From assembly GCA_045646605.1 (NCBI GenBank), contig JAZRLA010000002.1, positions 15,940-79,939 of the forward strand: DNA of 64,000 bases. Reading direction: 5' to 3'. The position numbers were made by a program, and so were the translations under genes. The notes beneath the pieces were generated by a model. That model was not told where the DNA came from. It saw only the letters and a list, made by a program, of their open reading frames with translations, and made no database searches. Numbering within the stretch: the first letter of the stretch is position 1; each line of letters starts with the position of its first letter. This document shows, one piece after another, positions 10,021-39,960 of this stretch. Source of the stretch: Candidatus Enterousia sp. (GTDB lineage Bacteria; Pseudomonadota; Alphaproteobacteria; Rs-D84).

Positions 10021-10099
10021 CACCAAGCCAGGGCAAAGCCCTGGCGCAGTCTCGGCGTAGTCGCGTCACCGCTGTGCGGTGACGGACAAAGACGGATAA
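10021..10099. repeat. 79-bp GC-rich two-hairpin repeat, copy 1
   Basis: CACCAAGCCAGGGCAAAGCCCTGGCGCAGTCTCGGCGTAGTCGCGTCACCGCTGTGCGGTGACGGAC(A/G)AAGACGGATAA. Identical except for 1 nt to the copy at 10570-10648. Internal hairpins CCAGGG-CAAAG-CCCTGG and GTCACCG-CTGTG-CGGTGAC. Confidence 0.75.
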
Positions 10100-10111
10100 C
10101 CACTAACACTA

Positions 10112-10510: not shown

Positions 10511-10569
10511 AAATAATTGGGGTGGAGTGTGTCGTTGTAACACACTAACCCGCTAGCCATTTACACTAA

Positions 10570-10648
10570 CACCAAGCCAGGGCAAAGCCCTGGCGCAGTC
10601 TCGGCGTAGTCGCGTCACCGCTGTGCGGTGACGGACGAAGACGGATAA
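10570..10648. repeat. 79-bp GC-rich two-hairpin repeat, copy 2
   Basis: Direct repeat of 10021-10099 with one mismatch; preceded by CACTAAC-type motifs. Confidence 0.75.
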
Positions 10649-10719
10649 ATCACAATTTTTTTCTTGCAAATGGGCAAGAATTGGATAGAATTAATAACTG
10701 TCGAATAAAAGGATAGAAA

Positions 10720-10869
10720 ATGGCAACGCCAAGAAGTAAAACAAGTAAAGCACGCAGCGCACAACGTCGTTCACATGATGCATTATCTGTGATGCCGTGT
10801 GGTGTATGCAAAACATGTGGCGAAAAGAAACGTCCACATCATGTTTGCCCGGCTTGCGGTGCAAAATAA
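10720..10869 (+). CDS. rpmF: 50S ribosomal protein L32
   Basis: 49-aa ORF MATPRSKTSKARSAQRRSHDALSVMPCGVCKTCGEKKRPHHVCPACGAK, absent from the ORF track because it is <60 aa. L32 signature RRSHDAL and CxxC…CxxC; located upstream of plsX (rpmF-plsX synteny); GGATAG RBS. Confidence 0.8.
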   Translation: MATPRSKTSKARSAQRRSHDALSVMPCGVCKTCGEKKRPHHVCPACGAK

Positions 10870-10927
10870 TAAAAAATGTATTTTGGATTGGGCGCATTCG
10901 TGTGCCCGTCTGTATTTTTAGTGCGCT

Positions 10928-11995
10928 ATGACCGACGAAACAAAGAAAATTATTGCGATTGATGCGATGGGCGGCGACCGTGGACCGGCCGCGGTCTTGG
11001 GGGGTATAAATCAGTTTTTATACCAACACGGTGAATCACACACTTTTTTCCGTATATTTGGTGATGAAAAATTGTTGCGCAAATTACTTGCAAAATATCC
11101 GCGCGTTGCGCGCAATTCTACGGTAATCGATGCACCCGATATAATCCGTGGCACGGACAAGATTCGCGATGTAATTCGCCATGCGCAAAACACTTCGATG
11201 TATATGGCGATAAAGGATGTGCGCGAAGGACAGTCCGCCGCGGTGGTCAGTTCCGGGAACACCGGTGTTTTGATGTCGCTTTCGAAACTTGCGTTAAAGA
11301 CGGTTGATGGAATTTCGCGGCCGGCGATTACGACAATGTTGCCGTCGGGTGCGGGCGATTCCCGTGTGGTTGTTTTGGATTTGGGTGCAAATGTGCAATG
11401 CGATGCCGGAAACCTGTTTGACTTTGCCATTTTGGGCAGTGTTTATGCCGAAATCATCGGTAAAATGCAACGACCGAAACTGGGCGTTTTAAATATCGGC
11501 GAAGAAGAAACCAAGGGCAACGAAACATTGCAACATGTGAATAAATTGCTGACGACGCATCGCGCGGAATTGCCGTTCGAATACCTTGGGTTTGTAGAAC
11601 CCACGGACATCAGTGCCGGCCGGGTCCAGGTTGTTGTGACCGACGGATTCACCGGCAACATCGTTTTAAAAACTGTCGAAGGCACCGCGAAACTTATCAA
11701 GCGCGTTATTTCCGAAAATATGAAACGTTCGTGGCTTGCGATAATCGGCGCGTTCTTTTTGGTGCATGTGTTCAAACGGTTAAAGCATAAAATTGATCCG
11801 CGTTCTTATGCTGGCGCAACATTTTTGGGATTGAATGGGTTTGTGGTTAAAACGCACGGAAATTCAGATGCGCTGGCCTTCGCAAACGCGATACAATACG
11901 CATCTGAATTTGCCAAGAAAGATTTAAACGATATAATCGGCGGCCGTGTTGCAAACCTTGCCCACATCCGCGCCGAATTGCAATCTGCAGAATAA
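10928..11995 (+). CDS. plsX: Phosphate acyltransferase PlsX
   Basis: 355 aa, PlsX-like throughout (…IAIDAMGGD…, …GFTGNIVLKT…); follows rpmF. Confidence 0.9.
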   Translation: MTDETKKIIAIDAMGGDRGPAAVLGGINQFLYQHGESHTFFRIFGDEKLLRKLLAKYPRVARNSTVIDAPDIIRGTDKIRDVIRHAQNTSMYMAIKDVREGQSAAVVSSGNTGVLMSLSKLALKTVDGISRPAITTMLPSGAGDSRVVVLDLGANVQCDAGNLFDFAILGSVYAEIIGKMQRPKLGVLNIGEEETKGNETLQHVNKLLTTHRAELPFEYLGFVEPTDISAGRVQVVVTDGFTGNIVLKTVEGTAKLIKRVISENMKRSWLAIIGAFFLVHVFKRLKHKIDPRSYAGATFLGLNGFVVKTHGNSDALAFANAIQYASEFAKKDLNDIIGGRVANLAHIRAELQSAE

Positions 11996-14420: not shown

Positions 14421-17400
14421 ATGAAACGACTTGCTATATTTATTGGTGGCCTGTTTGTGTTGCCCGCATTTGCTGAGGTTGCGCCCGTTTTCGTTACGGA
14501 TGAAGGCGCACTTGAATATGCGGATTTGATGTACGATGAAAATGGGTTTTTGATAATTCCTGATACAGAAATTGTTGAAGAAACGGACGAAGTGGACGAA
14601 CAAAAATCGCAAACGCCCGTAAAAATTTCGCGTGTGCCAACCGGTGCAACGCCGACCGCGAATCGTTCAACGGCATCGCGTGCGGTGCCTGCGTCGGGCC
14701 GAACGAATAATACATCGGGTCGTGGTTCAAATGCGGGCAATTCATCGCGTGTTGTTTCGGCACGTACGACAACCGCCACGCCGCGTGCAAATGCATCGCG
14801 CACGGTTGCATCACGTGGAACGGTTGCGTCGCCACGTACGGGAACGGCCGCGACGACATCAACGCGTACGACATCGAATACCGCGGCAACAAACGCGGCG
14901 GCGGCACGTGCAACGGGTGGTTCGGCCCGGTCGACCGCAACAACTGGTGCAAATGTTGCACGAACCGGAACAGTTGCGCGGACGGCAACGACGACGCGTG
15001 CGGGAACTGCGCGTGCGGCGACGGCAAAATCATCGACTGTTTCGCGTGCGGCAACAACGGACACATCGCGTCCATCGGTGCGTGGAAATATTGATGTTGG
15101 TGCGGGGGTAAAGGCCGGTGCAACAATCACGGCATCGAACGGAACTGTCACATTAGTGGATTCGAATAGAAGTCTTTATAACGCATCTGCGGTTCGTCGC
15201 GCGCCAACTGTTCGCATGTCTGCGTTAAAGGATACGACTGAATCAACAATAACCATGTCGATGGAGGATATGGATGATTTGGCGGAAATGACCGATTACT
15301 GCAAGGCACAATACGCATCATGTATGGATAATTATTGTAATGTCTTGGACGATAACCAGGGCCGGTGCAGTTGCAGTGCGAATTTAAAGAATTATGCCAA
15401 GGCCGAACAGGCGTTAAAAACCGCAACCGAAGAATTACAGGACGTTGCGCAAAAAATCCAATACATCGGTCTTACCACGCGTGAGGTTGAAACCCTGTTC
15501 ACCCAGACCGAGGCTGAATTGGCAATGCAATCCAAAACGGATACCAGCCAACTTCAGGCGAGTCTTGATAAAATCAAGGACATGATAATCGATGTTAAAA
15601 CCGGCAACACGACCAGCAGTGGCAACACCGACCTTTTTGGTCTGAATTTTGATTTGTCGGGCCTTTTGGAATTTTCGTTCGACAGTACTGGTTTTGACCT
15701 TGGGTCGCTTTTTGGTATGTCCAACACGAACAGTGTTAGCAACCAACGCGGCGAAGAACTGTTCAAAACCGCAACGGCGCGTTGCAAAACATCGGTGTTA
15801 AAGGCATGCACGGCGCGTGGTGTTGATGCGTCACTTGTCACAAACGCATACGATTTGGAAATTGATCGTGAATGCATCGCGTACGAGCGCAGTTTGAATG
15901 ATTCCAACGACCAAATGATTGCGACGGTTCGTAATGCAAAGAACGTTTTGCAAAAGGCGCGCCTTATGGTTGCGCAACAGAAAAACGCCTATGACCTGCG
16001 CGGATGTATCAACGCCCTGGACGAATGTATGCAGGATGAATTTGTCTGCGGTTCGGAATATGAAAATTGCCTTGACCCGACGGGCCGTTATATCGTGAAC
16101 GGTGAAATCGTGGTGGGCAGTCAACCCGGCCACGCCATTGACCCAGATTTACCGCAAAATGTCGCAAGTGTGATGACCAGTGACGTTTGCCGCGTGAACC
16201 TGTATCGGACATGGGACGTTGAACCCGGTGTATGCACACCGCACACCGTGGATGATGCATACAGCACATATGTTCAATATCCAACCGCGGACCAAGGCAA
16301 CGCCTGGGGCAGTGGTAATGAAAACGACAACCTTGTATATTATATTGAACAAACGGTAAAAACCGGCGCCGCGCACACGGCAAGTGAAAATATGTCGAAA
16401 TACTTGCAAAACAAAATCGGCTATATCGACAAAAAGGACGGCCGCGCGCACGGTATGTGCATATCGGTCCTTAACAAATGCCAAGATTATAGTTACGATG
16501 GCAAGGGCACATCCGCCAGTTACAAGGAAGACAACGACGTCATCAAACAATACCTTGGGCGCGTTTTGGTCCAGATCAAGGCGAAACAGGATGAAATCCT
16601 TGCAAACTATGCCGAAACATGTGTAACGGACGTCACATCGTGCCTGTCACAGAACGGGTACCCGACCGAGGATCCAACGGAATGGGGCGACGGCGACCCA
16701 AACTCACTTGAATACACGCAAAACATTGTAAAACAAAACATTGCGGTAAACGCCTGCCGGGCGCAGGTTGTAACCTGTATGTCCGTGAACGGCTATTCAA
16801 TCAGCACCCCAACCCCAACGGAAATGAATTGCTGGGTCCAAGGTTTGCTGTATAACTACACAACCGAAGATTGCATGTTTGAAACCAACACCACACATTC
16901 GTGCAGTTCTAGTACGCCTGGGTGGTGTTATAATAAGACCGCCTGTGAGGATGTCGGTGCCAACTGGTGCGGCAGTTCATGTCAACAACAGGAATGTTCC
17001 TGTTCGACACAAAACCCGGGCTCTTGCACCGAAACGGAATGCAAGGCAAAGACCGGCTTGTTCTGGTGCACGAATAATGGCGGTTCTTGTATGACCAGTA
17101 ATTCGCAATGCAGATATACTGTGAACATTGCGTGTGGAAGTGGTTCGACCGCTGCAAGTAGCAACCCCACCAGTAGCAACGTAATGCACGGCAATTCTGT
17201 GCAACTAAATAATGCATGGTGTAATGCAAGCAGCGATTACACATTTATTGGGTGGACTTGTACTGGTGGTTCGGTTGATAGCAGTGGAAAGTATTACCCA
17301 ACACACACTGGAACCACATGTACAGCAAACTTTAGATATGTATCCCCCGACACACCAAAATATTCCGTAACCCTTAACTGTGGCAATTCTTGTACCTATA

Positions 17401-18578
17401 ATTCGCGTGGATATAGTGGTACTTCGTTACCTCAGGGTACATCGCTTACTGTTCCAACTTGCAACAATGCTGTAAACGAGACGGTAGAATGGTCCTGTCA
17501 ATCGGATTCTACAATCACTGCTGGTCAGATTAATGGTGGAAATAGCCTATCTGTAACCGGGAAAGTCAACTGTACCGCACAATGTTCAACCCCTGGTACT
17601 GGCGATGAAATTAGTGTATGCATCGATTGTGGAATTAACACTTTTGTGAGCGACAAGATTAACACTATATCTGTTGGCTCCAAAGCATCCGCCTCGTTGC
17701 CATATACAGAAACTAGTAGTTCGGTTACTTTGTCATCATTTACATCTGGTGATGGGATTGAATTTGATAAAGGAATATGCAAATGCAGTGATGGTAGCAG
17801 CCCAACGGGATGGTGGGCAAACGACAGTACCCAAGGCATATCGGTGGGTAGTGACGGTAAGATTACAATGTCAAATATAACCGCAGACACAACCTTTACC
17901 CCAATATGCTCCACCGGCACCACGGACGGCACCACAATTGTGCAGATTTCATGCCCCGCCTCTTCTTGGGCAACACTTAACACTAATTTCTTCAGCAATT
18001 ATCCTGGAGATATAATAGCAGGCAATGTATATAAACAAGAAAACGTGACATCTTCAACGTTCGCGTTGGATAAGGATATGTGCGCTTGTAAGTCAGGGGA
18101 TACTATTAAAAATTGGATAAATAGTAACGGTGGTTTAGTCGGGGGTGTTAGCGGTGATTATGGCACGACAAATGCTATCTTAAAAACAGGCCAACTCAAT
18201 ACATTTATGCCGTATTGTCCGTCGGATTGGGTAACGTTGAATTTGAACTATAACAACGGTTCAACATCGCAAGGGCATCTTTACATTGATAGAAATCGTA
18301 CATGTCCAAATTTCTATACAAGTAATAGCATAACCCAATTACAATATTGCCCGTCTATAGTTCCCGACAGCAAAATCACCGTTCCAACCAAAGATAATTG
18401 CACGTTTGGTGGGTTCAAGGATAGCAGTAACAATACGTGGATAAATACCGAAGGTAAAATACAATTATCTGTTCTAAACTATGCTATTCCATCGACGGGC
18501 AACAGTATAACATTAACCGCACAGTGGGATTGCGGGTCCAGGCCGGTTTATATCCCCGTTGACGTTGAAGGTGACTAA
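14421..18578 (+). CDS. Giant secreted Cys-rich surface protein (1385 aa)
   Basis: Signal peptide MKRLAIFIGGLFVLPAFA. A ~180-aa Arg/Thr/Ala/Ser low-complexity tract, then an acidic segment, then a long Cys/Asn/Thr/Gly-rich region. AAGGAAGG RBS. Confidence 0.8.
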   Translation: MKRLAIFIGGLFVLPAFAEVAPVFVTDEGALEYADLMYDENGFLIIPDTEIVEETDEVDEQKSQTPVKISRVPTGATPTANRSTASRAVPASGRTNNTSGRGSNAGNSSRVVSARTTTATPRANASRTVASRGTVASPRTGTAATTSTRTTSNTAATNAAAARATGGSARSTATTGANVARTGTVARTATTTRAGTARAATAKSSTVSRAATTDTSRPSVRGNIDVGAGVKAGATITASNGTVTLVDSNRSLYNASAVRRAPTVRMSALKDTTESTITMSMEDMDDLAEMTDYCKAQYASCMDNYCNVLDDNQGRCSCSANLKNYAKAEQALKTATEELQDVAQKIQYIGLTTREVETLFTQTEAELAMQSKTDTSQLQASLDKIKDMIIDVKTGNTTSSGNTDLFGLNFDLSGLLEFSFDSTGFDLGSLFGMSNTNSVSNQRGEELFKTATARCKTSVLKACTARGVDASLVTNAYDLEIDRECIAYERSLNDSNDQMIATVRNAKNVLQKARLMVAQQKNAYDLRGCINALDECMQDEFVCGSEYENCLDPTGRYIVNGEIVVGSQPGHAIDPDLPQNVASVMTSDVCRVNLYRTWDVEPGVCTPHTVDDAYSTYVQYPTADQGNAWGSGNENDNLVYYIEQTVKTGAAHTASENMSKYLQNKIGYIDKKDGRAHGMCISVLNKCQDYSYDGKGTSASYKEDNDVIKQYLGRVLVQIKAKQDEILANYAETCVTDVTSCLSQNGYPTEDPTEWGDGDPNSLEYTQNIVKQNIAVNACRAQVVTCMSVNGYSISTPTPTEMNCWVQGLLYNYTTEDCMFETNTTHSCSSSTPGWCYNKTACEDVGANWCGSSCQQQECSCSTQNPGSCTETECKAKTGLFWCTNNGGSCMTSNSQCRYTVNIACGSGSTAASSNPTSSNVMHGNSVQLNNAWCNASSDYTFIGWTCTGGSVDSSGKYYPTHTGTTCTANFRYVSPDTPKYSVTLNCGNSCTYNSRGYSGTSLPQGTSLTVPTCNNAVNETVEWSCQSDSTITAGQINGGNSLSVTGKVNCTAQCSTPGTGDEISVCIDCGINTFVSDKINTISVGSKASASLPYTETSSSVTLSSFTSGDGIEFDKGICKCSDGSSPTGWWANDSTQGISVGSDGKITMSNITADTTFTPICSTGTTDGTTIVQISCPASSWATLNTNFFSNYPGDIIAGNVYKQENVTSSTFALDKDMCACKSGDTIKNWINSNGGLVGGVSGDYGTTNAILKTGQLNTFMPYCPSDWVTLNLNYNNGSTSQGHLYIDRNRTCPNFYTSNSITQLQYCPSIVPDSKITVPTKDNCTFGGFKDSSNNTWINTEGKIQLSVLNYAIPSTGNSITLTAQWDCGSRPVYIPVDVEGD

Positions 18579-18600: not shown

Positions 18601-21600
18601 ATGAACATGAAAAAGACTTTTATTTATTCAATCTGTGGATGTTTTGTAACCGGTGTGGCGACCGCGACCACATATTGGCTAAACATTATTCCAAATACAT
18701 GTACGGGGCACACAATATGCCTTACCCAGCCCACGGATGGTTCATGTTGTTCCGCAAACGATACCATTGAAAAATTTCCTGTTGCCTCTGGATCCAAAGG
18801 CGGCACCATTTCCCTGGGGTCCCGCAATATTGCAATATTTGATGCGACCGGTACGCCAACAACGTTTACCAACGAAAATATTCGTAATTCATTGATAAAC
18901 GCCACATCAAATGGAAGTCACCTTAGTGTTACAAAAATTCCCGCGGACACAACATTGGTATCCGTCACGGTTAATATGCAGGGCGGTTCATTACCCCTTG
19001 GGTTTACGGGTAACACGATGGCGATGGAACCGGGCGATGTAATCCTGTCTGCGGGCGTTACGCGTGCCGATGGTGCCAATTTGGCCGGATTTTATAAATC
19101 GGGTCAATCGCCGTCCACCGCAACATCAATTATAACCGTTGATAGCACACCAAGCCAAACATATATCGCAAAGTGGGAATGTGGCGAAGGTTTGGAAATG
19201 AATTCAAAGGGAACATGTATAAGTTCGAATACCGTTTATATGAAATCGGATGGTACGGTAATGGACCCCAATGAAATCGATATTAAATCCGGCGGTTCCA
19301 ATGGTTGCACTTTGTTGACCAAGGGCAAGGTTCATTTGTACGATTATAACCCAACTGCCCCCGATGATTTAAAGAATAATATGTATTATTATATGTATCG
19401 TGATGGTCCCAATGGTTCCTATGATAATAATATAATATATCGGCCATATTCGGACAGTGATCATAATCCATATATGGGAACTATTGTTACGTTAAACAAT
19501 ATATCCCAGGTTCAAAACTACAATTATTTACATACCGGAAGTCCGAACAATGGTGTAACACTGTATTGTCGTAGTAATGGATGCTGGTGGTCCGAACAGG
19601 GTGCCGAGTTACCCATGGTGGTATATCACACCAGTTCACAAAATGATTGTACGTGGTGCGGGTCCGATTGTACAATGTATACATATCCAAATAACGGCCA
19701 AACAATCTACTATTGGCAATGCCCTTGCATAAAGGCCTATGACGTCCCGGGCGAGGGCGAATGCGTCCCCGCATATCTTGGATGTACATATTTACCCCAG
19801 GTAACAGAAGATGGAACCACAGAAATGGTATGTGTACCACAAGGACAATATTCGGCCGCACATACCGAAGATTTAGTATGGGGATTACGTCAGCCAAAGG
19901 CAATCGGGTGGACTTTCCGCGGCTATTATCTTTCAAATACTGATGCAGACCTGTATACAACCGAAAATACAAATGTGGGCGCACCCGTAAATGGTTTCGG
20001 CACAGGAAACCCGAACAATCGGGAAAAAGTAATAAACATTACATCTCCAATCGCTGTATGTGGTACAAGTGGGCAAACGGCATATGAAATCACTCTTTAT
20101 GGTGCGTGGGCCAAAAACTGTAATCCTAGCGATCATGCGACATGTAATATGTCAATTAATGGCGTGGGCGCAAGTCCGTCATCTTATGGAACCGGCGACG
20201 TGTATTACAGCGCGTCATGCCAAAACGGGTACAATATAGAAAGCGGATCCGGAACGTATAATCCGGTGTGCAGTACGGATGTATCGGGTTCTGTGGACCT
20301 TAATTACAAATTTATAAATCAATACGGAAATTATATCAAGAAAAACAACAGCATGTACACTGTTGAGAACAGCTGTTCGTACGGGCAAGGATACACACTT
20401 TTAAGTGCGACCAGTTTCACCAACGCCCTTGGCACCGGGTATAGTTTGCGTTATTTAAAGATTGGTACTGGCAGTAATGGTTCATATTTTACCCAAAATT
20501 ATGGCCTTGGCTGTAGTACAAACGTGTTTGGCGCCGATGTAAATTCGGTCGATGTTACCGGGTACGTTTGCGACGAATGTGTGCCAGAGAACGGAACCTG
20601 TGTTGATGTCGATTACAGCCCATCTATACAATATCCCACCAGTGGTTCCGCACATCAAACCGCCACGTTGTGGGGTGCAAACACTAATAAAGGCTATACG
20701 GCATGCAAGAAATTAAGTTGTGCAGAGGGATACACCCTGCGGCAAAATGAAGCCACCGGTCACATGTATTGTGCACAAGAATGTGAACCCGGTAAAACGT
20801 TTCTTGATGGTGAATGTCGTACACCTTATGAGGCTTGCATATATAATTGTCAGCAAAACCAAGACCCGTCTAAGTGCGGCAGCAATTTAACAGATTTTTC
20901 AAGCTATTGCAGCACCGAAACATTTGTGTGTCCACCTTTAAACGCTCCAACGGGTCTTAGTATTACAAATGTGGCCAAGACAAACAGCCCCAAAGAATGC
21001 AAATATACGGTTGATTGCGCCAATGGTATCGGTACAGTATACGAAGGGGGACAGATGATCCATACCCAAGATAATGAGCTACATATATGGACAAGCAATA
21101 CTACGTCTGATTATATCCATTATAATGATGATGGCTCGGTTACGGTTACCTGTACTGATACAGACTGCAAACAAGAAAAGCTGAGTAATTTAAAGTGTCT
21201 GATTTGTCCGGCTTATAACGGGTCAGATACTACTGTAACTGTTCATAACCCGACGCGGAGCGATAAAAATCGCACCTGTTCATATAACATTAGCTGTAAA
21301 GCTACAGTGGTCCCAAGAATATTATTGAAAAAACGCGCAAGAAATGATAGCTGTTATGTGTGGAATGAGACTGATGAACCCAACTACTGTGCAATCGACA
21401 ATATTGACGCTGATTCTACGGATACTTTTACACCGACGGATACGGTTACATGCACGGCCAACCAATGTACGGCCGGTTATATGAGCACTCCTTACCACTT
21501 CTTGTCCACCGAATTTGCGAAATATAAATGTATACATACCAGCGCCTTCAGTTGCCCAACAATTAGTGGAAACAGCGGGGTAGCCGTCACAAAACGGCTA

Positions 21601-21900
21601 GGAACAGGCGAACAATGCACATACACATTGTCGTGCAATAATACTTCTCAAGTTCCGTATAGTGGTGGAGCACGCCCCAGTAGCAACTCTCCCACTGCAG
21701 TGACAATTTCTTGCGATGGGGTGGATGGATACAGCAATGCACCTTGCGTGGCGAGTTATTTAACCAGTAAGATACAAGCGTATATCTGTGGAGATACTCC
21801 GGGCTCTGGTGGTTCTGGGGATTCTGGTGATTCCGGCGGTACGGGTAGTGATGAAGGCGATATAGGTTCTGGTACCTCCGGTGGCACCCAAAGCAATTAA
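18601..21900 (+). CDS. Giant secreted Cys-rich surface protein (1099 aa), tandem to the previous one
   Basis: N-terminal hydrophobic signal. Cys/Asn/Thr/Gly/Tyr-rich throughout. C-terminal Gly/Ser/Asp tail (GSGGSGDSGDSGGTGSDEGDIGSGTSGG). 22 bp after the upstream gene. Confidence 0.8.
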   Translation: MNMKKTFIYSICGCFVTGVATATTYWLNIIPNTCTGHTICLTQPTDGSCCSANDTIEKFPVASGSKGGTISLGSRNIAIFDATGTPTTFTNENIRNSLINATSNGSHLSVTKIPADTTLVSVTVNMQGGSLPLGFTGNTMAMEPGDVILSAGVTRADGANLAGFYKSGQSPSTATSIITVDSTPSQTYIAKWECGEGLEMNSKGTCISSNTVYMKSDGTVMDPNEIDIKSGGSNGCTLLTKGKVHLYDYNPTAPDDLKNNMYYYMYRDGPNGSYDNNIIYRPYSDSDHNPYMGTIVTLNNISQVQNYNYLHTGSPNNGVTLYCRSNGCWWSEQGAELPMVVYHTSSQNDCTWCGSDCTMYTYPNNGQTIYYWQCPCIKAYDVPGEGECVPAYLGCTYLPQVTEDGTTEMVCVPQGQYSAAHTEDLVWGLRQPKAIGWTFRGYYLSNTDADLYTTENTNVGAPVNGFGTGNPNNREKVINITSPIAVCGTSGQTAYEITLYGAWAKNCNPSDHATCNMSINGVGASPSSYGTGDVYYSASCQNGYNIESGSGTYNPVCSTDVSGSVDLNYKFINQYGNYIKKNNSMYTVENSCSYGQGYTLLSATSFTNALGTGYSLRYLKIGTGSNGSYFTQNYGLGCSTNVFGADVNSVDVTGYVCDECVPENGTCVDVDYSPSIQYPTSGSAHQTATLWGANTNKGYTACKKLSCAEGYTLRQNEATGHMYCAQECEPGKTFLDGECRTPYEACIYNCQQNQDPSKCGSNLTDFSSYCSTETFVCPPLNAPTGLSITNVAKTNSPKECKYTVDCANGIGTVYEGGQMIHTQDNELHIWTSNTTSDYIHYNDDGSVTVTCTDTDCKQEKLSNLKCLICPAYNGSDTTVTVHNPTRSDKNRTCSYNISCKATVVPRILLKKRARNDSCYVWNETDEPNYCAIDNIDADSTDTFTPTDTVTCTANQCTAGYMSTPYHFLSTEFAKYKCIHTSAFSCPTISGNSGVAVTKRLGTGEQCTYTLSCNNTSQVPYSGGARPSSNSPTAVTISCDGVDGYSNAPCVASYLTSKIQAYICGDTPGSGGSGDSGDSGGTGSDEGDIGSGTSGGTQSN

Positions 21901-26444: not shown

Positions 26445-27977
26445 ATGATGAAAAGGGGAATAATATCTTTTTTACCGGCGTTGTGGGCCAGTTTTGCTGC
26501 ATTGGCGGCGAATGAAGGTGTGCCGGTTTATTACCAAGATGCGCCGGCAACTAACGCAAATCAGTCGAGTTATGGTGCGTATGCTGATAACGGTTATACA
26601 AAGTATGTTGGAAAGTCTGGTGAAAAACAGGTTGTGGGTACCCGTACGTATTCTTATACAACTGAAAAACGAAATCGTCCAACCCCAAGTATTGAAGAAT
26701 ATGCCGAAAATATCGGCTATGTTGGTGCTGGAACCATGACGGTAAATGGTGTCGGTTTGGCACCGGAACAGGAACGTTCAACACACTTTTATGCCGGATA
26801 TACACGTCGCTTTGCAAATTTTGAATTTAAGTCGGGTGTGAATTCAATACTTGAATGGGATGACATGATTTTTAATGAAATAAATGTTGGTGCCCGTCAT
26901 GTGTTTTCCTTTGGTAATTTTGATATGTTCGGTTTTGCCGATTATGCGTACGGTAAAATGTCAAATGGTGGGCTTTCCATGGATTACGATTTGGAACCAT
27001 ATGATTGGTCGGATCCAGAGTACGGAATTTTCACAATTTCAATGGGGGGACAATCCGGTGATTCGCATCATTTACGCCTTGGAATCGGGGCAAAGCATAT
27101 TTGGAACGTTGGTGGATGGAAATTTTCACCGGTGATTGGATACGAAATTTTCAAACACAATTTGGAAATGTCTGACCATTTATATCCAAACCAGGGAATT
27201 TATTTACCGCTTATGACAAATCTTGGTGAATATGTTTATGGAAATACAGAAGGGGAGTATTATTCATTACCAATTGACGTGTTGCCACCCGATGATTGGT
27301 ACCAGGTTTGTATGGGCCCCGAAGATATAAAAGTTGTGACACAAAGCGGAACATCAATGGGATATGCAACGTATCTTGGTGATGTTTTGCATACAATGGA
27401 TTATGACGAAGAAACGATGGGATACTTGCCTTGGGGTGTTTATGGTGGTGATTGTGTTATTATTGGGGGCGACGGACCGATAAAGGTTGGCGGACTTACG
27501 CACATATATAACACAACATGGAGTGGTTTCTATTTTGGTCTAGAAATAGAAAAACAAATGACACTTGCGGATAAATTGCGTCTGTATTTTCAAGTTGGTA
27601 TGCCAAAGTATTCATCCGAAGGTATATGGCCGAATCGTACGGATTGGCAACAAAACCCAAGTTTTTTGGATGAAGGAACAAATGGTTCCTATACATACGC
27701 GGCGGAATTGGAATATGATGTTCGTATCGCACCGCGGTTACAGTTGGCCTTAAAAGTTGATACGAATTTCTTTCATATTGGAAAGATACCTGGAAAACTT
27801 TACGTTGCCGAATATACTGAATTTGTAATGGATGAAAACGGTCAATATGTACTTGACGGAAATGGGTTACCATATCTACAAACGGTTCCCGCACATACCG
27901 AAGACGTGCAAGAATCATTAAAGTATGCAGATTGGCAATCGTTTGGCGTGCACCTAGGGTTTAAATATTCATTCTAG
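26445..27977 (+). CDS. Outer-membrane beta-barrel protein (510 aa)
   Basis: Signal peptide (…ASFAALAANE). Alternating amphipathic strands rich in Gly/Tyr. C-terminal …GFKYSF. Confidence 0.6.
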   Translation: MMKRGIISFLPALWASFAALAANEGVPVYYQDAPATNANQSSYGAYADNGYTKYVGKSGEKQVVGTRTYSYTTEKRNRPTPSIEEYAENIGYVGAGTMTVNGVGLAPEQERSTHFYAGYTRRFANFEFKSGVNSILEWDDMIFNEINVGARHVFSFGNFDMFGFADYAYGKMSNGGLSMDYDLEPYDWSDPEYGIFTISMGGQSGDSHHLRLGIGAKHIWNVGGWKFSPVIGYEIFKHNLEMSDHLYPNQGIYLPLMTNLGEYVYGNTEGEYYSLPIDVLPPDDWYQVCMGPEDIKVVTQSGTSMGYATYLGDVLHTMDYDEETMGYLPWGVYGGDCVIIGGDGPIKVGGLTHIYNTTWSGFYFGLEIEKQMTLADKLRLYFQVGMPKYSSEGIWPNRTDWQQNPSFLDEGTNGSYTYAAELEYDVRIAPRLQLALKVDTNFFHIGKIPGKLYVAEYTEFVMDENGQYVLDGNGLPYLQTVPAHTEDVQESLKYADWQSFGVHLGFKYSF

Positions 27978-29102: not shown

Positions 29103-30059
29103 ATGGCTATTAAGGTTCGCGATTTTGAAGTTAGACTAACACACACCAAAGAAGAACGTCGTATGGTGCGTCAATTGCGTTATGACGTTTTTGTCGCCGA
29201 AGAAGGTGCATCCGCCACCGACGAACAAAAAGAATTACACGAAGAATTTGACGAATTTGATAAATATGCCGAATATATGGCGGTATTTCATAACGGTAAA
29301 ATTGTCGGTACCTATCGTATTATTGATAAAAAGGCCGCGGACAAAATGGGCGGTTTCTATACCGAAACAGAATTTAATCTTTCAAAAATAAAAAAGGCAT
29401 CGGATAACATCGCGGAAATGTCGCGTGCATGTGTGGCGCGCGAATATCGTGAAAATGCACTTGTTATGCGTATGCTTTGGGCGGGACTTAGTGAATACGT
29501 TTTACGCCGGCGCATTGCGGTTTTGTTTGGTGTTGCATCATGGGTTGGCCAAAAACCGGTGGAATCGGCCCAGGCGATATCATACCTGTATTACAATTAC
29601 CTTTCGCCGTTGCGCCTGCGCGCGCGCGTGATACCGGAAAATTTTGCCGACGGCGTGGATCAACGCATGGCCCAAATGAATATTTTGCCACGCGCCTTTG
29701 TGGACGAAGAAATTGCAAAAAAACAAATGACACCACTTATAAAGGGTTACTTGCGCATGGGTGCAACCTTTGGCCAGGGTGTATTTATTGATAAACCGTT
29801 TAATACATACGATGTTTTTGTTATGTTGCAAACGAAAAATATGGATGCCGCGTATCAAAAGCATTTCTATGGTCGTGAAAATGCATTGGAACATTTGGAT
29901 GTTAAACGTCGCCCGATTCAAACATTGGGCAAAATAATGTTGTTGCCAATAACGGGGTCGTTGAATATGCTTGGTGCTTTTTTCGAATTTTTATTGCGTG
30001 AAGATGCGGCGGACGCGGAATTCATCGACGAATCACAGGTAACAGACGAAGAACAATAA
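29103..30059 (+). CDS. olsB: Ornithine-acyl-ACP N-acyltransferase (OlsB-like GNAT)
   Basis: Family resemblance (hemolysin-like acyltransferase fold, …RACVAREYRE…). Directly precedes a PlsC-type acyltransferase; olsB-olsA synteny. Confidence 0.65.
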   Translation: MAIKVRDFEVRLTHTKEERRMVRQLRYDVFVAEEGASATDEQKELHEEFDEFDKYAEYMAVFHNGKIVGTYRIIDKKAADKMGGFYTETEFNLSKIKKASDNIAEMSRACVAREYRENALVMRMLWAGLSEYVLRRRIAVLFGVASWVGQKPVESAQAISYLYYNYLSPLRLRARVIPENFADGVDQRMAQMNILPRAFVDEEIAKKQMTPLIKGYLRMGATFGQGVFIDKPFNTYDVFVMLQTKNMDAAYQKHFYGRENALEHLDVKRRPIQTLGKIMLLPITGSLNMLGAFFEFLLREDAADAEFIDESQVTDEEQ

Positions 30060-30060
30060 A

Positions 30061-30894
30061 ATGTCGGGTACACGGAAACAGAATTTTTTTAATACGATAA
30101 CCGGCGCACTGCGTTTTACGGCGTTTTGGATAATGGTTTTGTTACAGTTGCCTATATTGTTTGTATTGCCGGCGCGCAAAAAGATAACAGTAAAATATAT
30201 GTCGGTGTTTATGCGGATTTTTCTTTGGATTGCAAATGTTAAAATTGTAAAGCATGGCACAATGTCGACGCGGCGGCCATTGCTGGTTGCGGGCAATCAT
30301 ATTTCCGTGTTTGAAATTGCAACTTTTCCGGTTATGTTCGGGGGCAGTTTTATTTCCAAAAACGATGTCCGCAATTGGCCGCTTGTCGGGTGGGTTGCGA
30401 ATAAGTTTGGGGTCGTCTTTATCGATCGCCGTCCGTCACATGCGATGGAGGTATTAAAACAAGTGCAACATGAAATCGCAACCATCGATTGGCCACTTTA
30501 TGTTTTCCCCGAAGGCACCACAACCAACGGCGCGTATGTCAAGGAGTTCAAAAGTCCGCTTTTCAATGTCGCAGAAGGCGCGGATTTGACGGTTCAACCG
30601 GTTGTTATTCAATATTGCCACCATGATGGCACACCAATAAACGATGCGGACTTGGCGGAACATTATGCGTATTTCGATAATGCAAAACAAACCGCTGGTC
30701 CCAAATGTTCCCGCGAACGCAGCGCATTCGGCCAGGTTTTTCACATCATGGTTTTGGGCGGATTCCGTGTGAATGTTTATATGTTGCCGCCACCGCCACT
30801 GGCGGGAAAAGACAGAAAACAAATCGCAGAAACAATGTATGAAATAATTTCAAATAAATATATGGAACTTAAAGGTAATAAAAATGAGAATTGA
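30061..30894 (+). CDS. olsA: Lyso-ornithine lipid O-acyltransferase (PlsC family, OlsA-like)
   Basis: H(x)4E/D-type box (AGNHISVFE) and FPEGTTTNG motif of the lysophospholipid acyltransferase family. Confidence 0.6.
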   Translation: MSGTRKQNFFNTITGALRFTAFWIMVLLQLPILFVLPARKKITVKYMSVFMRIFLWIANVKIVKHGTMSTRRPLLVAGNHISVFEIATFPVMFGGSFISKNDVRNWPLVGWVANKFGVVFIDRRPSHAMEVLKQVQHEIATIDWPLYVFPEGTTTNGAYVKEFKSPLFNVAEGADLTVQPVVIQYCHHDGTPINDADLAEHYAYFDNAKQTAGPKCSRERSAFGQVFHIMVLGGFRVNVYMLPPPPLAGKDRKQIAETMYEIISNKYMELKGNKNEN

Positions 30895-32176: not shown

Positions 32177-32193
32177 AAAACAAAAATCAAAAC

Positions 32194-32209
32194 GGGCGCG
32201 GACGCGCCC
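32194..32209. terminator. Bidirectional hairpin terminator GGGCGCG-GAC-GCGCCC
   Basis: Sits between convergent proS (+) and 32252..32746 (-), with an A-run upstream and T-rich downstream. The same hairpin recurs at 22161-22176. Confidence 0.5.
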
Positions 32210-32251
32210 ACTTTGGTTGTATGGATTTATAATATTTTTATCACAATATCA

Positions 32252-32746
32252 TCATTTAACTTCATTCAATATCAAGTAGAAATCTGCGATATGTTCTGGG
32301 CTCATACCATTTAGTAAACTAACCGATGCGACAGAACCGAACGGGGCATAAAAATTGTTATCGAAGTTATAGTATTTACGGATACTATCGTTTATCTTAT
32401 TTTCCAGTGCGGACATTTGCATATGAATCATCATATTCCAAACTTTTTCTTGGATTTCATCATATTTGTAATCATCAAACCTGTAATTGTCCCAAAAATA
32501 ATTCAATATCTGTTCTGCTTGCGATGCTTCTAATTCTTTTATGCTTTCTGGAAAATTGTAACGCGGATGCGAATTACGGTATATATCCAGCTTTTCTTGA
32601 TTTACACCATACGCATTTATTCGTGCGGTATTATTGTCGGTTTGTGTGTTTTCATATTCAAGTATTTTATTAACAAAATCACTACGCCTATCGGCAACAG
32701 CAACCATTGGGACCAGCAATAATAATACAAACACTAACTTTTTCAT
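32252..32746 (-). CDS. Secreted hypothetical protein (possible periplasmic partner or immunity protein for the upstream GH108 protein)
   Basis: Signal peptide MKKLVFVLLLLVPMVAVA. AT-rich codon usage. Start overlaps the stop of the 32779..33636 gene by 4 nt. No known domain. Confidence 0.55.
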   Translation of the reverse strand: MKKLVFVLLLLVPMVAVADRRSDFVNKILEYENTQTDNNTARINAYGVNQEKLDIYRNSHPRYNFPESIKELEASQAEQILNYFWDNYRFDDYKYDEIQEKVWNMMIHMQMSALENKINDSIRKYYNFDNNFYAPFGSVASVSLLNGMSPEHIADFYLILNEVK

Positions 32747-32778
32747 ACACTTATTATTGCAGGATATATACAAGAAAA

Positions 32779-33636
32779 TCAATATCTATTTGTACGATTT
32801 GTCCATCCGTTGCCATATTTATCCCATCCGGGTAAATCCTTTAAGTATTCTATTCTGTTATCTTTTAAATCTTGCATAAAATCATCGATTTTATCGGTTG
32901 GAATACTGTTTAGTGCATCTATGGTTTTATCACCAATTTTCCCATCAACTTTTAAATTTTCGCCCATTGAATCATTTAGTATTTCTTGGACAAGTTTACC
33001 AACGTTTCTGAAATTACTCATAACACCCATATCAAATATAGCATTTGCAATACGGTCATCTTCTATATCACTAATACGACGGTCATCGTAGAAATTTTCC
33101 CCGTATATTTGTCTTGCCTGATTATTTGTTAAATCTTTTACCGCGTCCGGAAAGTTAAAGTCAGGGTGTTCCGTGTTATATTTATTTAGTGTCGGTTGGG
33201 TTATGCCAGAATTTGTGGGTTGGTCTATCTTATTTGGGTTATCAACATATCCGCCTTCTTCCGCCATAGTTTTACGAATTATATTTTGCTTTCGTTTATC
33301 AACGATCGGGTCATCATTATCATCCAGTTCTAGTTCTTCTATCCAACAACGGCAATTTAGATGATGTGGATGTTCCGGGATATCTTCTTCAGTTTCATAA
33401 ATAGTGCCGGAAAAACTTAGGCAATCATCACAAGTTTTTTCATCTTTTTCTGTATGCCAACACCACGCTCTTCTTATTGTTATACTGCGTCCGGTTGCAT
33501 CAATCGTGCTGTTGCCATATTTATTTTCGAAATAATTTTGAACTCGTCTTGTAACATTTTGGTGTTCTGGATTGCTAGAATTTGCATACGCATCACTTTG
33601 CATAAGGTTTAATATATTTTCTGGTATTTTGTTCAT
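32779..33636 (-). CDS. Mu F-like N-terminal segment fused to GH108 lysozyme and a PG_binding_3 peptidoglycan-binding domain
   Basis: N-terminus …TCDDCLSFSGTIYETEEDIPEHPHHLNCRCWIE… (HPxxNCRC signature of the Phage_Mu_F/SPP1 gp7 family). Middle …EEGGYVDNPNKIDQPTNSGIT…LTNNQARQIYGENFY… (GH108). C-terminus …DGKIGDKTIDAL…GWDKYGNGWTNR (PG_binding_3). Confidence 0.7.
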   Translation of the reverse strand: MNKIPENILNLMQSDAYANSSNPEHQNVTRRVQNYFENKYGNSTIDATGRSITIRRAWCWHTEKDEKTCDDCLSFSGTIYETEEDIPEHPHHLNCRCWIEELELDDNDDPIVDKRKQNIIRKTMAEEGGYVDNPNKIDQPTNSGITQPTLNKYNTEHPDFNFPDAVKDLTNNQARQIYGENFYDDRRISDIEDDRIANAIFDMGVMSNFRNVGKLVQEILNDSMGENLKVDGKIGDKTIDALNSIPTDKIDDFMQDLKDNRIEYLKDLPGWDKYGNGWTNRTNRY

Positions 33637-33779
33637 AATTTATCCTTTTGTTAAATAAAAAATCCGCTAAAAAGCGGACAAAAAAATGACACAAATGTGT
33701 CTTAAAACCAAGAGACATTTTATCATAAAAAACCAAAAAAATCAAGATGATATGTTATATCTCCCACGCCCGTTTTATA

Positions 33780-34349
33780 TCAATCTTTAAACAATATATC
33801 CATTATCGTATCAAATCTTTCTTTCAATTCTTTTTGCGATTCGGGACTTAGTTTTCGATAATCGCGCGCCAATTTGTTTTTAACAAATCCTTTTCCTTCC
33901 GGTATCGACAAATTCATTTTGTTATACGCCAAACTAAACAAAGATGGGATGTTATCAAAATGTGCAATAGCATCCGCATCGGCAAGAATTTGTTCTTCCG
34001 CCGTGTTGCGTGCGTCACTTTTACTGCCCCGATGGTGTAAAACGCATTTTTCAACCAAATCAATTTTTTCGGCCGGATATCCAAGTTCGGATAGTATCGA
34101 ACGTGTCATTTTCGCACCGTATATTTCATGTTCTTCGCGTGGACCAAATTCCGCGGCCATTGCCATATCGTGGAACAGTGCCCCCAGTTCGCAAACTTCA
34201 ACATCCGCACCGCGTTTAACCGCCAAATCATGCGCGTTTTGAAAGACATATTTTATATGCTCGTTCCAAAAATCATATCCGTCTTTTTCAAAAGATTTCT
34301 GGGTATATTCCAATAATTTGGCTTTTACGATTTCAACAATGTTTTGCAT
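33780..34349 (-). CDS. HD-domain phosphohydrolase
   Basis: H…HD motif (…ALFHDMA…), later His/Asp residues (…HH…DADAIAH…); 189 aa. Confidence 0.65.
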   Translation of the reverse strand: MQNIVEIVKAKLLEYTQKSFEKDGYDFWNEHIKYVFQNAHDLAVKRGADVEVCELGALFHDMAMAAEFGPREEHEIYGAKMTRSILSELGYPAEKIDLVEKCVLHHRGSKSDARNTAEEQILADADAIAHFDNIPSLFSLAYNKMNLSIPEGKGFVKNKLARDYRKLSPESQKELKERFDTIMDILFKD

Positions 34350-34351
34350 GA

Positions 34352-35104
34352 TTAATATTTCCTTTGATTTCCAAAAACAGGCATAGATACATTTTTTACA
34401 ATGTTTATAAAATTAGTTGTGGTATATTCAATCCCTGGATCGATTTGTTTGTTCTGACCTTTATTAAAAATATACCAAGGTCTTGTTCCAACAATTTTTA
34501 CTACCTTGCCATCGGTATATAAACTATCTTCTTCTGGTAATGCAATTACCGGCTCATGCATGGAATATTGTGTTAAATATTCTGTGGCTTTTTTGTGATG
34601 TTCCGCGTCTTGATTTGTGTAATGTGCGGTAAGTGAAAAACCAAATAATGAATTAAAACCGCGTGTATCTTTTAATTCAACATTGTTTGTATCCATATAG
34701 CTAATTGCTTCAATATCTTTGCCGAATATTGCCGCCCCAGCACTTCCACCATAAACCAACCCGCCGTTAGCTGTATATTCTTTTATTCGTTCAAACGCAC
34801 CACTGTCTTTTAACAGTTTTAATAGTTTATAAGTGTTTCCACCACCAATAAATATAGAAGAATAATTTGATAAATTTTTTTCTGAAATTTCGTCGGCGGA
34901 TTGTATAACTTCGATTTCGCCATGTTTAATATTTTTAAATTCACGAACCAAAAATTTTTTACAATTTTCATAGCCGGCATCATAATGATTCCAAGCCAAA
35001 GGAATGTATAAAATTGGTTTTTGCGAATCAATCAAACTTTCGAACAATTTATTTGTTATAGTGGTTTTATCTGCGCTGCCACCACCACCCAGTATAATAG
35101 CCAT
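34352..35104 (-). CDS. Peptidase S51 family (dipeptidase E / cyanophycinase-like)
   Basis: …ILGGGGS… N-terminus, GGGNTYKLL and the nucleophile elbow GGSAGAAIFG. Start taken at MAIILGGGG; the ORF-track extension overlaps parC. Confidence 0.7.
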   Translation of the reverse strand: MAIILGGGGSADKTTITNKLFESLIDSQKPILYIPLAWNHYDAGYENCKKFLVREFKNIKHGEIEVIQSADEISEKNLSNYSSIFIGGGNTYKLLKLLKDSGAFERIKEYTANGGLVYGGSAGAAIFGKDIEAISYMDTNNVELKDTRGFNSLFGFSLTAHYTNQDAEHHKKATEYLTQYSMHEPVIALPEEDSLYTDGKVVKIVGTRPWYIFNKGQNKQIDPGIEYTTTNFINIVKNVSMPVFGNQRKY

Positions 35105-35133
35105 AATTACACCCTTTTTAGAATTGTAAAAAA

Positions 35134-38790: not shown

Positions 38791-39960
38791 ATGAATAACA
38801 TTGATACAATCAGAACAATGTTGAAAAACGTGGGTCTGCACGTGCGTGGGGTTGATACAAATTTTATTTATATCGAAGACCCGGCATGTATATTGCGTGG
38901 CTTTGAAAATTTTTTGAACTATGCTTGGATGGTGTTGGGTTTGTTTACGGCCGGCCTTGTTATCGGATGGGGCATATCAATGATACGCGGTGCCAAAAAT
39001 GATATCAAAGAGAATTTCAAAACATTGGTTTTAATTTTTGGAATTCTGACCGCTGTGTGGCCAATTTTAAACGTTATTTATGGTGGCGACCTTTTGGGTA
39101 TGGGTTGTAAAACAACGCGAATTTCAATTAATGGTGTTAATGAAATATTGGCGGCCAAAGTGGCGGCCCGTGGCAGCAACGCAATGCTTTACGAAGATAT
39201 TGATATCTATGACTCAGGCAGTGGAATTTTACCAACATATGAGATGCCAGAATTAGACGACTTCCCAGATTTATCAGATTTGATGAATTGGACACCCGAT
39301 GAAACAGACGGTGGTTATAATATAACAAGTGAAATCAATCGTACGACCAATGCCGCTTCAAATTATACAAATGCACTTGGTGAATTTTCCAATCATACAA
39401 ATTCAAGAAATATAAACAGTAACCAATTTGGCAACGGGACTATCAATGGAAATGAATATAGAACAAATAGTGCCTCAAATTATACAAATATATCAATGAA
39501 CGGAAATACAGCAATTGCCGCGGTCAGTTCGAATGTCGGTGAAATTACATATACTGCACAAAACGGATCAAAGTATACACACCTTGGGGGAAGTTTAACA
39601 TGGCGTGCAAACAATCCGGGGGCGTTGCGGAATTCTGATTTTACGCGACGTATGGGTGCAATAGGTGTAACCACGAATGGATTCGCAATTTTTCCAACCC
39701 CAGAGGTTGGACGCAGGGCAAATGTTGCGTTGTTAAAAACCGATAAATATCAAAAGAAAACCTTGGCCGAAACAATACATGCCTATGCACCATCATCGGA
39801 TGGTAATAATCCCGCATCTTATGCGGCGCGCCTTGCACGGGCAATTGGTGTTTCGGTGAATACATACCTGCATGATATGTCTGATATACAAATAGAACGC
39901 ATGGTCGAAGGTATTCGCCGAATCGAAGGTTGGCGCGCGGGCGATGTTCGTAATCATTAG
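38791..39960 (+). CDS. Membrane protein with an Asn/Thr-rich linker and a conserved C-terminal domain of unknown function
   Basis: Two or three N-terminal TM helices. N/S/T-rich repeats (NYTN…). C-terminus …GGSLTWRANNPGALRNSDFTRRMGAIGVTTNGFAIFPTPEVGRRANVALL…. Confidence 0.55.
   Translation: MNNIDTIRTMLKNVGLHVRGVDTNFIYIEDPACILRGFENFLNYAWMVLGLFTAGLVIGWGISMIRGAKNDIKENFKTLVLIFGILTAVWPILNVIYGGDLLGMGCKTTRISINGVNEILAAKVAARGSNAMLYEDIDIYDSGSGILPTYEMPELDDFPDLSDLMNWTPDETDGGYNITSEINRTTNAASNYTNALGEFSNHTNSRNINSNQFGNGTINGNEYRTNSASNYTNISMNGNTAIAAVSSNVGEITYTAQNGSKYTHLGGSLTWRANNPGALRNSDFTRRMGAIGVTTNGFAIFPTPEVGRRANVALLKTDKYQKKTLAETIHAYAPSSDGNNPASYAARLARAIGVSVNTYLHDMSDIQIERMVEGIRRIEGWRAGDVRNH

Follow-up and report, generated by a model that had tools for sequence, protein, structure and literature searches.

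What is a peptidoglycan hydrolase that begins with part of a phage head protein doing on the chromosome of an uncultured gut bacterium? The question is raised by two adjoining genes of Candidatus Enterousia sp. (assembly GCA_045646605.1, contig JAZRLA010000002.1, positions 15,940 to 79,939), within a stretch of 64,000 nucleotides (nt) that we call the window. The first gene encodes the hydrolase, here called the effector, and the second a small secreted protein, here called the partner. Enterousia are Alphaproteobacteria of the order Rs-D84, so far uncultured and found in animal guts; their genomes measure about 0.75-1.0 Mb, and dependence on other cells is thought likely (PMC12306168). We suggest, with a probability of roughly 0.45, that the two genes form a domesticated, phage-derived cassette in which a muramidase effector is gated by antitermination and accompanied by a separately expressed periplasmic protein that acts as immunity protein or modulator.

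A probable SagA-type muramidase

Searches with profile hidden Markov models bore out the domain assignment of the preliminary description, since both families score above their Pfam gathering values in the 285-residue protein: Glyco_hydro_108 (PF05838) with 59.2 bits against a cut-off of 21.2, and PG_binding_3 (PF09374) with 34.7 bits against 24.6. The effector was modelled by AlphaFold 2 (AF2) with a predicted local distance difference test score (pLDDT) of 83.8 and a predicted template-modelling score (pTM) of 0.73. Its C-terminal 174 residues match SagA of Brucella abortus (PDB code: 7dnp) with an expectation value (E) of 1.4e-14 and a Foldseek TM score of 0.76, and NMB1012 and TtsA/Sen1395 also match them. 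Thus, Pfam, PDB and fold searches all identify a SagA-type GH108/PG_binding_3 enzyme, in the N-acetylmuramidase class of SagA, TtsA and N4 gp61.

The catalytic residues of SagA are E17, D26 and T31 (PMC8334348). In the alignment, E127 and T141 of the effector are in register with the Glu and the Thr, and K136 stands at the position of D26. The invariant D138 lies two residues past that position, inside a conserved IDQPTN loop, where SagA and TtsA have DPGGxT. By homology, we consider it likely that the effector is a muramidase and cuts the glycan strands of peptidoglycan.

Half of a MuF domain at the N-terminus

The preliminary description had read the N-terminal segment as a motif of the Phage_Mu_F (MuF) head-morphogenesis family. 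The relationship holds, but it covers only the C-terminal half of the domain and stays under the curated cut-off: PF04233 matches with 27.0 bits (cut-off 29.6), and only at profile positions 62-110 of 112, on residues 54-98. Because this match has an E of 8.1e-6, the TCDDC...HPHHLNCRCW motif is real and statistically non-random, and two orthologues of the effector exceed the cut-off with 31.6 and 34.2 bits. Six PHROG families of head morphogenesis proteins, minor head proteins or head maturation proteases match the full effector (E 3e-7 to 8e-3), and seven head-protein families match residues 1-114 alone (E 2e-6 to 7e-2). Among phage genomes, Fusobacterium phage Funu2 gave a weak tblastn alignment (E 0.05): residues 4-105 pair with the C-terminal half of its annotated protein F-like gene, which lies downstream of the terminase and portal genes. 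Searching 1.84 billion proteins with a profile of the N-terminus yielded 340 representatives at E <= 1e-3, and PF04233 is present in 62 of 82 relatives sampled from them. Thus, the first ~110 residues of the effector and the C-terminal half of phage MuF head proteins are related; we call these residues the half-MuF module. They are not a general extension of the GH108 family, since stand-alone GH108 relatives of ~180 residues lack them.

In the AlphaFold model of residues 1-116 (pLDDT 86.4), a helix-loop-helix (residues 6-40) is followed by a beta-hairpin and a knuckle that holds C69, C72, H92, C95 and C97. In 51 relatives, H92, C95 and C97 never vary and C69 and C72 hardly do, and we infer that the knuckle would bind zinc. 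When this model was used for a fold search of BFVD, with few exceptions the best matches were MuF or minor capsid proteins (probabilities of 0.9-1.0, E values of only 0.01-0.3). No solved structure resembling the module was found by sequence profile (best E 0.61, spurious) or by fold search. The first 40 residues match the extreme C-terminus of phrog_3742 (E 5e-5; 40-45 bits with a motif profile), and podophages have the genes of such proteins between those for the portal and the major capsid protein. A scaffold C-terminus in another locus, L043, looked similar to the helix-loop-helix by eye; it was dropped, as the profile gave nothing at E <= 1. Scaffolds or prohead proteases of characterised phages bind the interior of the capsid through their C-terminal tails, and by analogy we read the half-MuF module as a putative capsid-association signal.

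The partner is a secreted paralogue of the enzyme

The partner starts at ATG 32746, and its product begins with the Sec signal peptide MKKLVFVLLLLVPMVAVA, which has no lipobox and is followed by D; the secretion signal noted in the preliminary description is therefore present. Two other statements about this gene have to be revised. The first is a 4-nt overlap with the effector gene, which appears because the longest-ORF (open reading frame) rule picks a TTG. In L001, L009, L010 and L012 stop codons interrupt the TTG frame or the conserved ATG lies in another one, so the TTG start was rejected, and a spacer of 33 nt separates the effector stop codon from the partner ATG. The second is the "unknown fold" of the product, which Pfam, tblastn and hhalign identify as that of a diverged GH108/PG_binding_3 paralogue of its neighbour. 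The partner matches PF05838 with E 0.0023 and 18.9 bits, below the gathering score of 21.2; tblastn aligns it to effector residues 115-271 at 25-28% identity, and hhalign of the two proteins gives a probability of 98% (E 1.6e-13).

A lineage-specific insert, YN..HP.[FY]NFP, is common to effector and partner, which argues that the partner arose by duplication of the adjacent enzyme. The part of the partner that corresponds to EGGY and the catalytic loop varies within its family and is deleted in some members. Since homology is clear while the catalytic region varies or is lost, the partner is best described as a secreted pseudo-enzyme. Identities as an LprI, PliC or MliC-type inhibitor were considered and have no Pfam support. 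The partner family (90 clusters) is restricted to Enterousia-like sequences, and every orthologue of the short form (short module followed by GH108) has a secreted protein of the 164-residue type after the effector gene. A partner with a signal peptide beside a wall hydrolase without one fits the logic of an effector and its immunity protein, and the partner probably protects or tunes the wall of its own cell.

A predicted terminator gate before the effector gene and a promoter for the partner

The region upstream of the effector gene contains a promoter-like sequence, P1, followed by two terminator-like hairpins. The P1 pattern TTGAYT..TGnTATAAT is kept 5' of orthologues in differing contexts and 5' of distant family members, and the layout of promoter and hairpins recurs upstream of distant relatives that carry other warheads, that is, other C-terminal effector domains. 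When hairpins were detected sequence by sequence, 23 of 23 family leaders had at least one that is terminator-like. The stems of hairpin 1 in the relatives vary yet pair (GGCACA/TGTGCC, GGCGCA/TGCGCC, GGACGAC/GTCGTCT and AGACGGC/GCCGTCT). As background, such a hairpin occurs within 110 nt upstream of 3 of the 38 genes in the window, and two hairpins occur at the effector gene only. An Rfam scan of the leader gave chance-level matches only. RNAalifold on a MAFFT alignment of the leaders was set aside: the hairpins were out of register, hairpin 2 alone emerged and covariation contributed negligibly, while a trimmed alignment of hairpin 1 split into two registers.

The partner appears to have a promoter of its own, P2. 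Its architecture (TTGATT, a spacer of 17 or 18 nt, nAnAAT, exactly 6 nt, ATG) recurs in 15 of 15 orthologues, two of which (L011 and L012) were judged by eye, and the bases of the spacer vary. In this comparison no Shine-Dalgarno sequence was found 5' of the partner ATG. Since P2 lies 6 nt from the ATG and a Shine-Dalgarno sequence is lacking, we predict that the partner mRNA is leaderless. A strong bidirectional terminator ends the cassette.

In the late operon of phage lambda, PR' is followed by the terminator tR' and read-through depends on antitermination by Q, and operons of the colicin type have a constitutive internal promoter for the immunity gene. The Enterousia cassette resembles both, with a predicted strong promoter and terminators before the lytic gene and a separate predicted promoter for the putative protective gene. 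It differs from lambda in having two tandem terminators; near the cassette we identified neither a Q-like gene nor a Q-binding element, and the comparison rests on sequence conservation. As a strong promoter placed directly before terminators follows the logic of a phage late operon, expression of the effector would need antitermination, and we infer that it is gated in this way. A gated enzyme with an independently expressed secreted partner would be the arrangement expected of a dangerous effector and its protection.

The cassette is old and under purifying selection

Orthologues of the effector occur in at least 13 Enterousia-like genomes. Their neighbourhoods vary, and the partner alone is co-conserved. 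The flanks of the orthologous loci include parC, proS, gyrA and leuS, and no portal, terminase or capsid gene was recognised within ±10 kb. For ten orthologues the median dN/dS is 0.16 over residues 1-112 and 0.11 over residues 113-285, with synonymous sites near saturation; the half-MuF module is therefore maintained and not decaying. Conservation over the full length extends to more than 50 protein clusters. Exact-sequence look-ups of the effector protein of the window and of P0272 found no record of either.

The nearest locus, L001, comes from a metagenome-assembled genome of Candidatus Enterousia with 96% identity and synteny across 20 kb. Codon 176 of its effector gene (10001..10855) has changed from CAA to the nonsense codon TAA, and the public protein, P0001, has 175 residues; this is either pseudogenisation or an assembly error. 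Effector copies in L024 and L028 are split or truncated. Both genes of the cassette are AT-rich, as the preliminary description had stated (GC fraction 0.34-0.35, against 0.43 for the window). The horizontal origin that it derived from this composition is weakly supported, with 7 of 38 window genes at or below 0.36, and recent transfer is unsupported, the cassette being old within the genus by its near-saturated synonymous divergence.

These data bear on whether the cassette is simply an inert remnant of a decayed prophage, in which the MuF motif would be a functionless leftover. Both domains are of phage ancestry, and the AT-rich composition, the nonsense codon in L001 and the degenerate copies in L024 and L028 would agree with such a history. 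However, both halves of the protein are under purifying selection, the full length is conserved, and leader, internal promoter and partner are all retained, which makes an inert remnant highly improbable.

A polymorphic family with podophage relatives

A Pfam census of the 82 relatives gave GH24 lysozyme (13), SAA-like (10), M23 (6), GH108 (6), M15 (3), Tlde1 (2), YkuD (2), pesticin-like (2, weak matches), lipase (2) and ADP-ribosyltransferase (1) domains. The switch between domains is clear in P0127, which is 67% identical to the effector over residues 1-129 (71% to residues 1-116 in another alignment) and then continues as a GH24 lysozyme, the change falling after residue ~112. The combination of MuF segments with other C-terminal domains, for which the preliminary description had proposed a survey, thus exists. 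Since one N-terminal module has recombined with many wall-degrading domains, we regard these proteins as a polymorphic cell-wall effector family of phage origin. In P0129 and P0190 the module stands at the C-terminus instead.

P0183 has a long form of the module joined to M23 and is encoded amid a T7-type scaffold, a major capsid protein, a PF12236 portal and a fragment of a T7-type terminase. Its N-terminus is 40% identical (E 4e-35) to that of the long GH108 form of Enterousia. Because of this locus and this similarity, the lineage of the module can be traced to podophage structural modules. The copy encoding P0130 and the Enterousia copies lie in housekeeping neighbourhoods.

Relatives in Enterousia take three forms: the short module with GH108 and the paralogue partner (L001-L012, L033), the long module with GH108, and GH108 alone. 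Genes of the latter two forms have, instead of the paralogue partner, a convergent neighbour encoding a secreted Cys-rich protein of ~145 residues. It was seen at L013, L014, L015, L018, L019, L020, L024, L025 and L036 (for example, L014 11232..11666, minus strand), has a signal peptide and the pattern KCD..F...VCYESV...MYNPD.CYN.CGNL, and matches no Pfam family; it may be an alternative immunity protein or inhibitor. It did not match LprI at E <= 1, and an LprI-like (lysozyme-inhibitor) fragment lies near one family locus. L046 has a convergent neighbour of 148 residues with a signal peptide and a Cys pattern that is alike by eye, with no tblastn match to the others.

Several further loci were observed. 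In L043, a podophage-like element with a mini-MuF-M23 protein, a PG_binding_1 and Tlde1 (L,D-transpeptidase-like) protein without a mini-MuF profile match is encoded 2 kb upstream (coordinates 7025..8029 and 10001..11158). In L024 module and enzyme are separate genes (8385..9170 and 10128..10670): a frameshifted or split MuF-like ORF (184 residues, PF04233 34.2 bits), a multi-transmembrane ORF of 113 residues and a stand-alone GH108 gene of 180 residues. P0124 (276 residues) has the module, a truncated GH108 and a DUF2924-like tail and is probably rearranged or chimeric. P0006 (101 residues) ends in GRASCRERV, which resembles a translated sequencing adaptor.

Relation to MuF toxins and possible delivery by virions

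MuF polymorphic toxins (PMC5576092, PMC3482391) share with the Enterousia protein a MuF-related N-terminus, variable C-terminal effectors and a small downstream ORF of possible immunity function. Unlike them, the Enterousia protein has only the C-terminal MuF half, and its gene is neither beside a portal gene nor in a prophage. The warheads of its family are mostly peptidoglycan hydrolases, whereas the words "lysozyme" and "peptidoglycan" are absent from the main text of PMC5576092, and the candidate immunity protein is a dead paralogue of the effector. Compared with the published MuF toxins (PMC5576092, PMC3482391, PMC5512222), the cassette stands apart by the half-domain, the peptidoglycan-directed warheads, the lack of prophage linkage, the conserved terminator leader and the paralogous partner.

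The usual MuF toxin setting, a gene beside the portal in a prophage, is absent here and at the orthologous loci; only the distant P0183 has it. The preliminary description had reported no phage structural genes nearby, and this holds for the ORFs searched in the window. Pfam was run on ORFs of at least 150 residues across the 64 kb, and PHROG on ten ORFs that included the unannotated ones closest to the cassette, after which nine ORFs remained without a family match; portal, terminase and capsid proteins had zero matches in either search. Families of type IV and type VI secretion systems (T4SS, T6SS) and of PAAR/VgrG/Hcp adaptors were not found among the Pfam matches of the window or the annotated flanks of the orthologues.

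The effector could nevertheless be a classical MuF toxin that is packaged in phage, prophage or gene-transfer-agent-like particles encoded elsewhere, is injected and degrades the peptidoglycan of neighbours, with the partner as the periplasmic immunity protein of lysogens. The exchange of C-terminal domains behind a MuF-related N-terminus, the podophage surroundings of P0183, the resemblance of the leader to a phage late operon and the small secreted downstream protein, which matches the MuF toxin pattern (PMC5576092), would all be explained. Against delivery by virions stand the missing structural genes in the window and in the orthologues' flanks, the half-sized MuF domain, the small genomes (PMC12306168) and the differing housekeeping neighbourhoods of the cassette. 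IMG/VR pattern scans, which detect close relatives only, also returned no relatives with the GH108 alignment, P0183, P0134, P0159 or P0144 as queries. We therefore think that packaging in particles is unlikely.

Proposed model and its weighing

We propose that Candidatus Enterousia keeps the two genes as a self-contained chromosomal module derived from a phage. The first would encode a SagA/TtsA-type GH108 muramidase without a signal peptide, whose first ~110 residues are the half-MuF module; in phage relatives, this module likely lets the protein be built into or carried by the capsid. Transcription would begin at the strong promoter and meet two intrinsic terminators before the coding region, so that no enzyme would be produced unless they were overridden, as happens in phage late operons. 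The second gene, with its own promoter and an mRNA predicted to begin at the ATG, would yield a Sec-exported inactive duplicate of the enzyme fold. In the periplasm the partner would shield the peptidoglycan of the producer or titrate the enzyme, as an immunity protein or modulator. Once released, the enzyme would cut the glycan strands of peptidoglycan.

Several observations weigh against this model. The catalytic Asp is shifted by two residues relative to D26 of SagA, so activity is assumed; some relatives have GH108 without the N-terminal module; and the nonsense codon in the 96%-identical L001 indicates that the gene can be lost. Near the cassette, no antiterminator (Q-like or other) was recognised, and an export route (holin, secretion system or capsid genes) was not found near the effector gene. 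Promoters, terminators and leaderless initiation are predicted from consensus and conservation, and it would be unusual for an immunity protein to be paralogous to its effector.

An alternative to the effector model starts from the structure of the enzyme. SagA and TtsA are the nearest solved structures, and the protein could be a domesticated autolysin like Brucella SagA or Salmonella TtsA, which would open local gaps in the wall for envelope assembly, export or division. The module and the pseudo-enzyme would then be regulators, with no antagonism involved. Purifying selection within a reduced genome and the neighbouring mltB and other envelope genes are in line with this role, and SagA likewise has an adjoining secreted modulator, PhiA (PMC8334348). 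The effector shares with SagA (7dnp) and Salmonella Typhi TtsA (6v40) the two-domain fold, the Glu and Thr in register and the lack of a classical signal peptide. However, SagA has a C-terminal transmembrane anchor and no MuF module, while the effector has neither signal peptide nor transmembrane anchor, and PhiA is an MliC/PliC-like beta-barrel and not a GH108 paralogue (PMC8334348). In addition, recombination of the module with unrelated wall-degrading and lipase domains is atypical of a housekeeping enzyme, a leader with tandem terminators is unusual for a housekeeping hydrolase, the closest relative carries a nonsense mutation, and T4SS or toxin-export genes were not seen in the window. 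Thus, an autolysin is a possibility that we take seriously but doubt.

Returning to the proposed gated effector, two further groups of wall-degrading proteins are comparable. Podophages have peptidoglycan hydrolases that are internal to the virion or ejected from it, such as T7 gp16. These hydrolases and the lysozyme domains of polyvalent proteins (PMC5512222) likewise place a wall-degrading domain on a capsid-associated module. The Enterousia gene differs from podophage hydrolases in being chromosomal and stand-alone, with a secreted paralogue and no virion genes nearby. Pesticin and Pim are a muramidase bacteriocin and its periplasmic immunity protein. Like the cassette, they combine a signal-less muramidase that has a non-catalytic module at its N-terminus with a protective protein in the periplasm, a role that the partner may fill. 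The Enterousia effector differs from pesticin in that a TonB box or receptor-binding domain was not recognised, its N-terminus is MuF-like, and the candidate immunity protein is a paralogue of the enzyme.

A bolder interpretation is that the family represents an undescribed class of polymorphic cell-wall effectors. Here the module, a scaffold-tail-like helix-loop-helix plus a Cys/His knuckle of ~110 residues in all, would be the trafficking domain, with no need of a linked phage, the promoter and tandem-terminator gate would be universal, and immunity would come from a duplicated, inactivated effector domain. In Enterousia the enzyme might then be a weapon or an access tool, directed at the bacteria that the obligately partner-dependent Rs-D84/Enterousia live on. 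At present we regard this interpretation as improbable.

Features of the locus and other genes of the window

Table 1. Features of the effector-partner cassette (window coordinates; aa, amino-acid residues)
Feature	Position	Strand	Remarks
Effector gene	32779..33636	minus	285 aa, no signal peptide; AAGGA Shine-Dalgarno 8 nt 5' of ATG
Helix-loop-helix motif, aa 6-41	33514..33621	minus	LMxSDAYxNxxNPxHxxVxxxVxxYF; AF2 helices 6-13, 15-18, 25-40
MuF C-terminal motif, aa 54-104	33325..33477	minus	W..W/H...D..TCxxC...PxHPHHxNCRCW; beta-hairpin, putative Zn site C69, C72, H92, C95, C97
GH108 muramidase domain, aa 121-206	33019..33276	minus	E127, D138, T141 invariant
PG_binding_3 domain, aa 214-282	32791..32997	minus	aligns to C-terminal domain of SagA and TtsA
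Promoter-like P1	33717..33745	minus	TTGATT-17-TAAAAT with upstream TG; consensus scan; 5' of leader hairpins
Leader hairpin 1	33688..33701	minus	GACAC/GTGTC and T-run; terminator-like
Leader hairpin 2	33662..33679	minus	GTCCGCT/AGCGGAT and T-run; terminator-like, 26 nt 5' of ATG
Internal promoter-like P2	32753..32782	minus	TTGATT on effector stop codon, 18-nt spacer, (TG)C-AATAAT, 6 nt, partner ATG
Partner gene	32252..32746	minus	164 aa; Sec signal peptide (aa 1-18) and catalytically dead GH108/PG_binding_3-like paralogue
Bidirectional intrinsic terminator	32188..32215		12-bp stem, between partner and convergent proS

The window also encodes rplJ, rpoB, rpoC, plsX, a PLD-type synthase, an M13 peptidase, a Pom-like porin, mltB, olsB/olsA-like genes, proS, parC, map, nrdDG, lgt and similar genes. 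Between parC and the cassette lie genes for an HD-domain protein (189 residues) and an S51 peptidase (251 residues; 33780..35107 for both, minus strand). They are missing from the otherwise syntenic L001, where the cassette directly adjoins parC; this absence and their AT-rich composition (0.33-0.40) suggest that the pair is a small insertion.

On the plus strand, 38791..39960 encodes a membrane protein of 389 residues whose C-terminal ~110 residues (GGSLTWRANNPGALR...) match endolysin and tape-measure PHROGs (E 4e-15) and no Pfam family. This part shares 32% identity (E 5e-18) with the N-terminal domain of P0129, which bears a mini-MuF module at its own C-terminus, and may represent a second wall-related domain of phage origin, at 5 kb from the cassette. 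Two adjoining giant ORFs (14421..18578 and 18601..21900, plus strand; 1385 and 1099 residues) have no Pfam or PHROG match, and one of them has a 45%-identical relative in L022. Directly 5' of mltB, 26445..27977 (plus strand) encodes a protein of 510 residues whose C-terminal part matches the Protochlamydia outer membrane protein family (Pom, E 1e-10). A GNAT gene (Acetyltransf_5/FeeM-like) adjoins an acyltransferase gene at 29103..30894 (plus strand), a pair that we take to resemble the olsB/olsA ornithine-lipid genes.

Implications

Known MuF fusions are packaged by phages, carry mainly warheads that target nucleic acids or nucleotides, and always lie beside portal genes. The half-MuF described here is a portable module that has been joined to many peptidoglycan cutters and kept in a genome of ~1 Mb without visible phage genes. 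If its proposed function is true, it is a possible capsid-targeting tag. The promoter-terminator leader and the separately promoted, putatively leaderless partner, a dead paralogue, provide regulatory hypotheses that can be tested directly. Immunity derived from the effector's own fold would, if true, be an unusual evolutionary route. Finally, a gated wall-degrading effector would offer a lead to how the uncultured, cell-dependent Enterousia interacts with other cells.

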